IMG/VR virus record: IMGVR_UViG_2565956631_000003
Span: 1 to 7,264 of that record
Source of the DNA: a virus
Lineage: Duplodnaviria > Heunggongvirae > Uroviricota > Caudoviricetes
DNA: 7,264 nucleotides
Direction: 5' to 3' (one strand)
Every line of letters begins with the position of its first letter. Positions within the stretch are counted from its first letter, which is position 1. Shown here one piece after another: positions 5,529 to 7,025 of this stretch. A model generated the notes under the pieces. That model saw only the letters and a list, made by a program, of their open reading frames with translations, was not told the DNA's origin and did not search any database. The translations under genes were made by a program, and so were the position numbers.

Positions 5529-5638
5529 CCAGAACTTGAGTGGTTTTGGGGATGGCGCGAATTGCAGCTGCAAGACAGCGATCGAGAAGATAAGCACCTC
5601 GACGCGTCATGCGCCAAAGCCACTTAAAGGAGACCATC

Positions 5639-5944
5639 ATGGTAACCATTGTCTGGAAAGAATCCAAAGGTACGGCAAAAAGCCGCTACAAAGCTCGCAG
5701 AGCAGAACTTATTGCCGAGCGACGCAGTAATGAAGCACTGGCGCGAAAAATTGCTCTAAAGCTCTCTGGTTGCGTCAGAGCAGACAAAGCAGCATCACTC
5801 GGAAGCATTTGCTGCAAGAAGAAAGAAGAAGTCGTTCGAAAAAATAGAAGTATTTATTACAAGGATTCAAACCCATTAGGAAACAAAATACATGCAGTCC
5901 AAAAAATAAAATTGTACAGTAAACTACCGTACGGTGCTTATTGA
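5639..5944 (+). CDS. N: N-type transcription antiterminator (phi21-like arginine-rich motif)
   Basis: AAGGAG at 5627-5632, 6 nt before ATG 5639. N-terminal MVTIVWKESKGTAKSRYKARRAELIAERR is the arginine-rich boxB-binding motif I recall for phage 21 N. First gene after nutL. The in-frame ATG at 5609 lacks a Shine-Dalgarno. The 3' third of the gene is markedly AT-rich. Confidence 0.8.
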   Translation: MVTIVWKESKGTAKSRYKARRAELIAERRSNEALARKIALKLSGCVRADKAASLGSICCKKKEEVVRKNRSIYYKDSNPLGNKIHAVQKIKLYSKLPYGAY

Positions 5945-5946
5945 GT

Positions 5947-6285
5947 ATGCTTATGGTGAAAAAGACTATTTATGTTAATCCTGACCGCGGACAAAACAGA
6001 AAAGTATCTGATAGAGGTCTTACATCTCGAGACAGGAGGAGAATAGCGAGATGGGAAAAGAGGATAGCATATGCATTAAAAAACGGTGTAACACCTGGAT
6101 TTAATGCTATAGATGACGGTCCTGAATATAAGATTAATGAAGACCCAATGGATAAAGTTGACAAAGCATTAGCAACACCATTTCCTCGCGATGTCGAAAA
6201 AATTGAAGATGAAAAATATGAGGATGTAATGCACAGAGTTGTTAATCACGCTCACCAACGAAATCCAAATAAAAAATGGTCATAG
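5947..6285 (+). CDS. Hypothetical 113-aa protein in an AT-rich segment immediately after N
   Basis: ORF begins at the N stop (TTG 5941, ATG 5947 or 5953; no clear Shine-Dalgarno, so the start is uncertain). Arg-rich N-terminal half (RGQNRKVSDRGLTSRDRRRIARWEKR) and acidic C-terminal half (EDPMDKVDK...EKIEDEKYED). AT-rich codon usage unlike the flanking genes. No family recognised. Confidence 0.5.
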   Translation: MLMVKKTIYVNPDRGQNRKVSDRGLTSRDRRRIARWEKRIAYALKNGVTPGFNAIDDGPEYKINEDPMDKVDKALATPFPRDVEKIEDEKYEDVMHRVVNHAHQRNPNKKWS

Positions 6286-6309
6286 CACACTTCGGTGGGT
6301 TTTTTATTG
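6286..6309 (+). terminator. Possible weak terminator (tL1-like position)
   Basis: Short CAC-UUCG-GUG hairpin followed by GGGUUUUUUAUU. The stem is weak; the U-tract is strong. Confidence 0.3.
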
Positions 6310-6418
6310 TCTGAACTAACCGAATTTATTACAGCAAGCCACGCAGTGAAATGGGTGTGACTTGTGTTGGTCGCCAGAAAATGAAATTAGGCAGCAAACC
6401 ACTTATTTGAGGTGATAT

Positions 6419-6505
6419 ATGGAAGAAGAATTTGAAGAGTTCGAAGAGCATCCTCAGGATGTGATGGAACAATACCAGGACTATCCGTATGACTACGACT
6501 ATTGA
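6419..6505 (+). CDS. 28-aa highly acidic, aromatic-rich micro-ORF overlapping the ral start
   Basis: GAGGTGA Shine-Dalgarno 6 nt before ATG 6419. Translation MEEEFEEFEEHPQDVMEQYQDYPYDYDY. The TGA at 6503-6505 overlaps the ral ATG (6489) by 17 nt. Confidence 0.4.
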   Translation: MEEEFEEFEEHPQDVMEQYQDYPYDYDY

Positions 6506-6689
6506 TAAAAATCAATGGTGTGGACAATTCAAGCGATGCAATGGATGCAAGCTGCAATCGGAATGCATGGTTAAGCCTGAAGAAATGTTTCCTGTAATGG
6601 AAGATGGGAAATATGTCGATAAATGGGCAATACGAACGACGGCAATGATTGCCAGAGAACTTGGTAAACAGAACAACAAGGCTGCCTGA
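6489..6689 (+). CDS. ral: Ral antirestriction protein (lambda Ral-like, 66 aa)
   Basis: MTTTIDKNQWCGQFKRCNGCKLQSECMVKPEEMFPVMEDGKYVDKWAIRTTAMIARELGKQNNKAA matches my recollection of lambda Ral. Four Cys (C-x5-C-x2-C-x5-C). Early-left operon position downstream of N. Confidence 0.7.
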   Translation: MTTTIDKNQWCGQFKRCNGCKLQSECMVKPEEMFPVMEDGKYVDKWAIRTTAMIARELGKQNNKAA

Positions 6690-6728
6690 TGGTGGCCTTT
6701 ATTTTTGGCATAAACAACAGAGGCTAAC

Positions 6729-7025
6729 ATGGAATTTAAAGGTACTGAAGGTAAGTGGGAAATAATGATGGATGGCGATGAGATTAAAATCATCCAGGCA
6801 GACTCACTTGAAAATGGCGCAGGCTGGCGTTCGTATATTGCAATCTGTGAGGAAGTTCAATGTATTGAAGATGCCAATCTAATAGCGGCAGCACCTGACC
6901 TTCTCGAAGCACTTCAGTTATTACTTAAGCAATCCAAAAATAGAACAACGACAACATATCCAGAATGGTATGGAGCTGTTAATAAAGGTCTTGCAGCAAT
7001 CAGCAAGGCTCTGGGAGGTGAATGA
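6729..7025 (+). CDS. Hypothetical early-left protein with an ANLIAAAPDLLEAL motif (possibly Ead/Ea22-like)
   Basis: 98-aa ORF with GAGG Shine-Dalgarno 5 nt upstream. The NLIAAAPDLLEAL motif recurs in small lambdoid early proteins by my recollection. Family assignment is tentative. Confidence 0.55.
   Translation: MEFKGTEGKWEIMMDGDEIKIIQADSLENGAGWRSYIAICEEVQCIEDANLIAAAPDLLEALQLLLKQSKNRTTTTYPEWYGAVNKGLAAISKALGGE

Follow-up and report, generated by a model that had tools for sequence, protein, structure and literature searches.

Lambda orf28, an acidic micro-gene overlapping ral, is very probably a selected protein gene and is linked to two unrelated families of restriction-alleviation genes

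The window analyzed here is a stretch of 7,264 nucleotides from a viral record assigned to the Caudoviricetes. The DNA surrounding the feature under study is a lambdoid early-left operon with the gene order N, nun, orf28, and ral. A reading frame of 28 codons, orf28, overlaps the start of ral, and a terminator-like hairpin closes the cassette formed by these two genes. The features of this region are as follows.

5609..5944, phage-21-like N (PHROG 271)
5941..6285, HK022-like nun (PHROG 5632)
6409..6416, plus strand, Shine-Dalgarno sequence of orf28, GAGGTGAT, with its GAGG core 6 nt 5' of the ATG
6419..6505, plus strand, orf28 coding sequence (lambda orf28, lambdap47), ATG, 28 codons and TGA, peptide MEEEFEEFEEHPQDVMEQYQDYPYDYDY
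6477..6480, plus strand, weak Shine-Dalgarno sequence of ral, AGGA, within orf28 codons 20-21 and 8 nt 5' of the ral ATG
6489..6505, plus strand, 17-nt dual-coding overlap of orf28 and ral
6489..6689, plus strand, ral, ATG at 6489, 66 aa, antirestriction protein Ral (PF11058, E=1.6e-48)
6678..6709, plus strand, terminator-like hairpin with T-run closing the orf28-ral cassette, 9-bp stem followed by TATTTTTGGC

The 17-nt overlap comprises orf28 codons 24-28 and the stop codon, with the T of codon 24 at 6488; on the ral side it corresponds to codons 1-5 and two bases of codon 6. At the other end of the cassette, the 5' arm of the terminator hairpin overlaps the last ral codons. The tandem of N and nun is already known, as it is annotated in phages mEp235 and mEpX1. 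Past the nun stop, positions 6281..6305 hold a short GC stem, capped by a UUCG loop, together with a T-run (gcacacTTCGgtgggtttttt), which has the look of a weak terminator and was not flagged by the terminator scan.

The predicted duplex between the orf28 Shine-Dalgarno region and the 3' end of 16S rRNA has an energy of -6.9 kcal/mol. Random 18-mers from the window have a median of -2.2 kcal/mol, and 2% of them reach -7. An earlier note, made from the sequence alone, had described a 28-aa frame at 6419-6505 with a good Shine-Dalgarno sequence and a 17-nt overlap with ral, all of which the sequence bears out. Its figure of about 50% Asp and Glu was too high, the actual content being 12 of 28 residues (43%), and it had not recognized the frame as an annotated lambda gene. 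Orf28 has a net charge of -12.4 and a pI of 4.05. Ral (pI 8.8, charge +2.5) is of opposite sign.

A length of 28 codons is by itself within chance, given the 27 frames of at least 20 aa (with any start codon) found in the last 1.26 kb of the window. In acidity, orf28 ranks first among the 69 ATG-initiated frames of at least 20 aa in all six frames of the whole window, with 43% against 21% for the runner-up, and the binomial probability of its composition is about 3e-6 to 3e-5. The composition and conservation of orf28 exceed chance, while its length alone does not. The downstream product, Ral, contains four invariant or near-invariant cysteines (C11, C17, C20, and C26), and their CX5CX2CX5C spacing suggests a metal-binding knuckle; a sequence search of the PDB returned no related solved structure for Ral.

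Both the DNA and the protein of orf28 are 100% identical to orf28 of phage lambda (lambdap47, NP_040623.1). In the lambda genome, orf28 occupies 34271..34357 and ral 34087..34287, with the same overlap at the ral start in the pL operon. The lambda entry differs in nothing from the window and is labelled 'hypothetical protein'. The feature is the long-annotated, uncharacterized lambda orf28, and hence already known. Orf28 matches PHROG 16060 (function unknown) over positions 1-28 of 28 with E=7.1e-19. Searches returned neither a Pfam family (E up to 1) nor a PDB sequence (E up to 10), and a tblastn search gave no match, probably owing to its low-complexity filter. The peptide string is absent from the papers searched. 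When orf28 was knocked down by CRISPRi, no plaque phenotype appeared and the gene was classed as non-essential, although type I restriction was not active in the host used (PMC10695390).

Complete E. coli genomes carry the orf28-ral segment in 888 of 5,426 cases (~16%). Among the matches listed, the RefSeq/PGAP annotation of E. coli usually gives only an 'antirestriction Ral family protein' and no orf28 coding sequence (for example, H113-H120). A Ral protein 100% identical to that of the window, as lambda's is, also occurs together with orf28 DNA on short or low-coverage contigs of unrelated bacteria (L009-L024, L027, L029, L030, and L032), in assemblies that include Pseudoxanthomonas, Nocardioides, Paenibacillus, Kitasatospora, Bradyrhizobium, and Enterococcus. 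These occurrences most likely reflect lambda contamination of sequencing libraries. Similarly, the 48,361-bp record MW057783.1, 'Campylobacter phage CJLB-4', seems to be either contaminating lambda DNA or mislabelled: the Ral it encodes is the same as lambda's, and its orf28-ral segment gives a match with the coverage and identity seen for lambda.

For the analysis of selection, about 300 ral loci were gathered from phage records, viral contigs, and genomes. The orf28 frame is open in all 50 distinct full-length nucleotide variants. Over the 22 codons that lie outside the ral overlap (codons 2-23), variable sites number 6 at first, 6 at second, and 20 at third codon positions (Fisher P=9e-7). 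The pN/pS ratio is 0.17 in the orf28 frame, against 0.19 for ral on the same loci. The other two sense frames give 2.5 and 1.6, and the antisense frames 1.5, 0.29 (with stops in 47 of the 50 variants), and 3.8. In the sets with and without ral alike, the non-coding frames have ratios of at least 0.76 or are ridden with stops. These ratios were computed pairwise and ignore phylogenetic non-independence, and the contrast between frames is large.

Changes of length among the relatives are in-frame, and some of them start with GTG instead of ATG. Residues E7, F8, H11, P12, D14, M16, Y19, Q20, and Y22 are invariant, defining a conserved core E-F-x-x-H-P-x-D-x-M-x-x-Y-Q-x-Y-P that is followed by a tail of Tyr and Asp. 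Codons 19-23, which contain the ral Shine-Dalgarno sequence, also vary at third positions, which places the constraint there on the peptide and not on the ribosome-binding site. At deep divergence, Orf28 retains 75-88% identity, versus 48-56% for Ral. The earlier note had named loss of the frame in relatives as a sign against a functional peptide; both the frame and the peptide are conserved. On this comparative evidence, orf28 is almost certainly a real, selected protein gene, and its product is probably a disordered, acidic and aromatic mini-protein of 3.7 kDa.

Two other causes for the conservation of this segment were considered and rejected. A conserved RNA structure is not apparent, as the single-sequence fold has z=-1.9 and the consensus of 38 diverse sequences reaches only -2.6 kcal/mol with no covariation; Rfam gives no match. 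An antisense frame of 56 aa (6387..6557) is likewise discounted, since the two largely open antisense frames are those with pN/pS of 1.5 and 3.8, and the antisense frame with a low ratio is the one interrupted by stops in 47 of 50 variants.

An intact orf28 accompanies ral in 115 of 122 distinct contexts (~94%). The remaining contexts consist of four with a disrupted orf28 (two nonsense changes and two deletions of ~45 nt) and three with a different upstream gene. Conversely, a scan with the lambda-type peptide finds ral directly downstream in 116 of 120 matches and a ral remnant with an internal deletion in three. Nearly all relatives linked to ral retain the 17-nt overlap. Across 32 different upstream contexts, some of them non-homologous, a purine block resembling a Shine-Dalgarno sequence lies 5' of orf28, with a median energy of -6.9 kcal/mol against a background of -2.2. 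The upstream regions of ral, with a median of -4.0 kcal/mol, pair more weakly than those of orf28. The two genes thus display the hallmarks of an overlapping pair, namely the 17-nt overlap, a weaker ral Shine-Dalgarno sequence located within orf28, and the conservation of this arrangement, and from this architecture orf28 is likely to be translationally coupled to ral. The coupling geometry that the earlier note had pointed out is upheld, and its overlap extends to the relatives; the orf28 site is strong, and the weaker AGGA of ral lies inside orf28.

The association of the two genes is not absolute. In P22, a lambda-type orf28 (97% nucleotide identity) precedes a ral that is only 76% identical, indicating a recombination (mosaic) joint between the two genes; this pairing shows no sign of allele-specific co-adaptation of orf28 and ral. 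In addition, ral occurs without orf28 in L181/L233, L007, and L008. A ral subgroup whose product begins with MSANVD (L181/L222, L233) lacks orf28 and is overlapped (ATGA) by a 66-aa frame, MAKITFGFCGAEKAHAVQKG..., for which no PHROG match was found. In loci that lack orf28, Ral is free to change in its first five residues.

Other loci carry deletions. In the three remnants (viral contigs L370, L413, and L428), orf28 is intact and the ral behind it has lost the same internal stretch (…CAATGGTGTGGACAAT joined to ACGAACG…), apparently between short GG(A/G)CAAT repeats. In L139 and L162, the deletion of ~45 nt lies between GAGG and CAGG and places the orf28 Shine-Dalgarno sequence before Met16, leaving a frame of 13 codons (MNKYQ[DE]YPY...) that spans the ral start.

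A complete scan for a diverged type of the peptide (HP-x-DDM-xx-YQDYP) yielded 34 loci in viral contigs and 12 in metagenomes, four of which repeat viral contigs. Many of these loci are without ral. In at least 11 contigs (nine viral and two further metagenome contigs), the gene order is N, a gene for a 77-aa product, an orf28-like gene, and a hairpin with a T-run. Against PF14354 (Lar_restr_allev), the 77-aa product scores 33.8 bits, where the gathering threshold is 28.6; it also matches PHROG 599, the Lar-like restriction alleviation proteins, with E=1.6e-10, and shares 30% identity with Rac RalR/Lar (E=2e-9). The start of the orf28-like gene overlaps the Lar stop by 8 nt in the geometry GTGGGTGA (711..718 of L460) and is preceded by GGGAGG. 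The start codon is GTG in most of these contigs and ATG in L477. Close relatives of this Lar gene in viral contigs have orf28 immediately downstream in nine of nine cases. Past the terminator, the Lar-type loci (L431, L439, L447, and relatives) carry a small hydrophobic frame (e.g., MISTGNYIFGWLVIGVLMGLGFIAGGNG), followed by a homolog of the 98-aa frame at 6729..7025 of the window (PHROG 1273, unknown function).

In six other contigs (L437, L457, L459, L455, L471, and L479), the orf28-like gene stands alone and is followed by a terminator. The Cys-rich frames upstream of two of these stand-alone genes give only sub-threshold zinc-ribbon matches. Altogether, 13 of the 19 contigs without ral have an orf28 that shares a start/stop overlap with a small Cys-rich restriction-alleviation gene. 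No Ral is detectable in the examined flanks, which cover up to ~14 kb of each contig.

The Orf28-like peptides from loci without ral all match PHROG 16060 (E 1e-8 to 1e-12). Nine distinct sequences of this set have a pN/pS of 0.09 at a pS of 0.69. Their last five codons, free of any overlap with ral, still encode [FY][DE][YF]D[YS], with synonymous differences. Six of the nine sequences have a hairpin GGCTGCC...GCAGCC with a T-run directly past the orf28 stop, related to the one in the window, and the other three have a different hairpin. As judged from these substitution patterns, purifying selection acts on the peptide sequence as such, whether ral is present or not. Selection on its own sequence suggests that Orf28 is neither a mere leader of ral nor an obligate Ral subunit.

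In the comparison, orf28 sits at the beginning of the early-left operon, and its linkage extends to two gene families in opposite orders: ral follows it with a 17-nt overlap, or a Lar-family gene precedes it with an overlap of 8 nt. Ral and Lar belong to unrelated families that share one phenotype, the alleviation of type IA restriction with enhanced modification (for Lar, according to the family annotation). Adjacency to one of these two genes is conserved, as expected for an accessory module, with the six stand-alone genes as exceptions. Being adjacent to two unrelated anti-restriction genes, Orf28 probably helps the phage to escape host restriction enzymes. The earlier note had raised the prospect of a functional acidic peptide acting as a nucleic-acid mimic or a Ral partner; that the peptide is functional gains support, of an indirect kind, from this tight linkage to Ral and Lar.

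From gene context and conservation, we favor, with modest confidence, a reading in which Orf28 is a trans-acting acidic and aromatic mini-protein, co-translated with Ral or Lar and taking part in type I restriction alleviation; the tie to restriction alleviation is held at that same modest level. Ribosomes would load at the strong orf28 Shine-Dalgarno sequence, read through the weak ral ribosome-binding site, and terminate 14 nt beyond the ral ATG. By re-initiating, they would make both products together. Orf28 would then act in trans in the alleviation of restriction by type I (EcoKI-type) enzymes. As an acidic decoy or ligand, it might dock on a basic surface that binds nucleic acids, carried by the restriction-modification enzyme or by its zinc-ribbon-like partner (Ral or Lar). 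We propose this putative decoy or DNA-mimic mode of action only tentatively. A role as chaperone, as antitoxin, or as something else are further possibilities. Also speculative is a stricter version, in which Orf28 is a second component of Ral/Lar-type alleviation, an acidic peptide of 23-30 residues that may bind the type IA enzyme or the small zinc-ribbon partner and be needed for the full switch from restriction to de novo methylation.

Two published plasmids bear on this stricter version. [quoted passage not shown] From an earlier inducible ral clone, the relief was 800-fold (PMC3874165). The comparison of these plasmids is an anecdote, confounded by expression level and possibly by what the earlier insert contained. 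Against an obligatory partnership stand the ral genes that lack orf28, the orf28 genes found alone in six contigs, and Rac ralR of E. coli K-12, which has no orf28-like neighbor; the neighboring gene product there, RcbA, is a basic protein of 69 aa.

AlphaFold2 models of two natural fusions of orf28 with ral, used in place of a co-fold, give low-confidence helix or coil for the peptide part and no confident docking, and are uninformative. Fusion P0001 has a mean pLDDT of 68 and a pTM of 0.40, with a pLDDT of ~65 for the peptide part; in fusion P0011, most of the orf28 part is below 50 and the alignment mis-pairs nine residues.

Among known systems, Ocr (T7 gp0.3) and ArdA are very acidic, early-expressed proteins that counter type I enzymes, EcoKI among them (PMC9410887). 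Orf28 is likewise very acidic, and its content of 43% Asp and Glu would suit a DNA-mimic surface, although the AlphaFold2 models place nothing firmer than low-confidence helix or coil there. Ocr and ArdA are folded proteins of ~116-166 aa that imitate an extended piece of B-DNA with their carboxylates, whereas Orf28 has 28 residues and is modeled with low confidence. In contrast to them, it always accompanies or replaces modifiers of the Ral/Lar type, instead of being the sole factor. The Pfam (E up to 1) and PDB (E up to 10) searches also do not place Orf28 in the Ocr or ArdA family.

A precedent of similar size is Stp of phage T4, a 26-residue peptide that acts on the type Ic enzyme EcoprrI and triggers the PrrC anticodon nuclease. 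Like Orf28, Stp is a phage peptide of fewer than 30 residues, and its target is a type I restriction-modification complex, which shows that so small a product can do that job. Unlike Orf28, it is not acidic; the two have no sequence resemblance and occur in different contexts.

The alternative that survives best, although we regard it as rather unlikely, is that Orf28 is an independent early effector. It would act in trans on another host or defense protein, such as a DNA- or single-stranded-DNA-binding protein or a client of the acidic SSB tail, and would lie beside ral or lar only because the early-left operon begins with a cluster of anti-defense genes; the tight linkage could indeed simply reflect such a cluster. 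This reading accommodates the stand-alone orf28 genes that have their own terminator and are still under selection, the function of ral and Rac lar without orf28, and the mosaic joint of orf28 and ral in P22. It also draws on the resemblance of an acidic stretch with a C-terminal aromatic residue to the tails of SSB-type proteins, exemplified by E. coli SSB (...DDDIPF) and T7 gp2.5. Orf28 ends in a comparable way, with an acidic run and a C-terminal aromatic residue (…DYDY, …DYDF, …YPYDF), but is a free peptide and not the tail of a DNA-binding protein. Loose clustering, however, would not predict start/stop overlaps with two unrelated restriction-alleviation genes in opposite orders, nor direct adjacency in 116 of 120 lambda-type matches and in nine of nine Lar relatives.

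A regulatory role for the nascent peptide is improbable. Here the N-terminal run MEEEFEEFEEHP would make early elongation fragile, through an intrinsic ribosome destabilization relieved by EttA, so that synthesis of Orf28 and, via coupling, of Ral would depend on Mg2+ or on the energy state. After Met, Glu fills five of six positions (EEEFEE), which matches the description of a window enriched in Asp, Glu, and Pro, and the ral Shine-Dalgarno sequence is weak and lies within orf28. A screen of E. coli for N-termini of this class found ten candidates among 4,187 frames, and seven of the eight that could be assayed attenuated translation (bioRxiv 10.1101/2021.02.02.429294). Pausing that depends on EttA requires acidic residues among the first 30 and is passed on to a co-translated downstream gene, as from aceB to aceA (PMC11282234). 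Like MgtL-type and EttA-dependent leaders, orf28 is a short upstream frame, rich in Asp and Glu directly after Met, whose translation would affect the next gene.

Unlike such leaders, orf28 is conserved over its full length, has no attenuator RNA, and is also found behind its partner or with no gene following it. Selection extends along the entire peptide and takes in the non-acidic invariant residues F8, H11, P12, M16, Y19, and Y22, and orf28 persists both with only a terminator downstream and in a position downstream of lar. No conserved RNA structure surrounds the ral ribosome-binding site (consensus -2.6 kcal/mol). An action solely in cis on the downstream gene, by RNA switch or by coupling, thus does not describe orf28, which has no conserved RNA structure, no Rfam match, and selected copies without a downstream gene. 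Sensitivity of early elongation would be at most an added property.

It is similarly improbable that Orf28 is an antitoxin or chaperone that masks the DNA-binding face of a basic, Cys-rich partner of the Ral or Lar family until this partner meets its target. The opposite charges of the two proteins (-12.4 versus +2.5) and their co-translation in both gene orders would suit such a pair. Rac RalR is moreover annotated as an endodeoxyribonuclease (DNase) toxin, with an RNA antitoxin, RalA. Against this stand the stand-alone orf28 genes that are selected with no partner nearby, the existence of ral without orf28, and the lack of any confident AlphaFold2 packing in the natural fusions.

The last alternative, a spurious frame or a pure coupling leader in which nothing or only the act of translation matters, as the earlier note had considered in writing that orf28 may be only a coupling leader for ral, could draw on the overlap geometry, the weak ral Shine-Dalgarno sequence, and the 13-codon frame retained over the ral start in L139 and L162, but is scarcely credible given a pN/pS of 0.17 in the orf28 frame only, comparable to that of ral (0.19), and homologs that persist under selection without ral. 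The same holds for its variant, a programmed frameshift that yields an Orf28-Ral fusion. Fused frames do exist in databases, but they amount to three or four singleton short-read contigs, arising from 1-nt or in-frame deletions, and there is no slippery site in the orf28/ral overlap. The '76 members' of the fusion cluster are ordinary Ral proteins.

We therefore return to Orf28 as a candidate trans-acting participant in restriction alleviation. Selection equal to that on Ral, survival without ral, and coupling to two families make orf28 a concrete candidate player in the action of Ral and Lar on type I enzymes, the mechanism of which has been open since 1980. The gene has remained a 'hypothetical protein' since the lambda genome was sequenced, although lambda is among the best-studied phages. 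If Orf28 were indeed a second component of Ral/Lar-type alleviation, no smaller anti-restriction factor would be known. Its involvement could then explain why the mode of action of Ral has only been inferred, a direct interaction with EcoKI being merely suggested, as well as the near-inactivity of ral expressed without orf28. In practical terms, constructs for recombineering or transformation that carry ral only may miss a needed cofactor or the natural ribosome-loading site.
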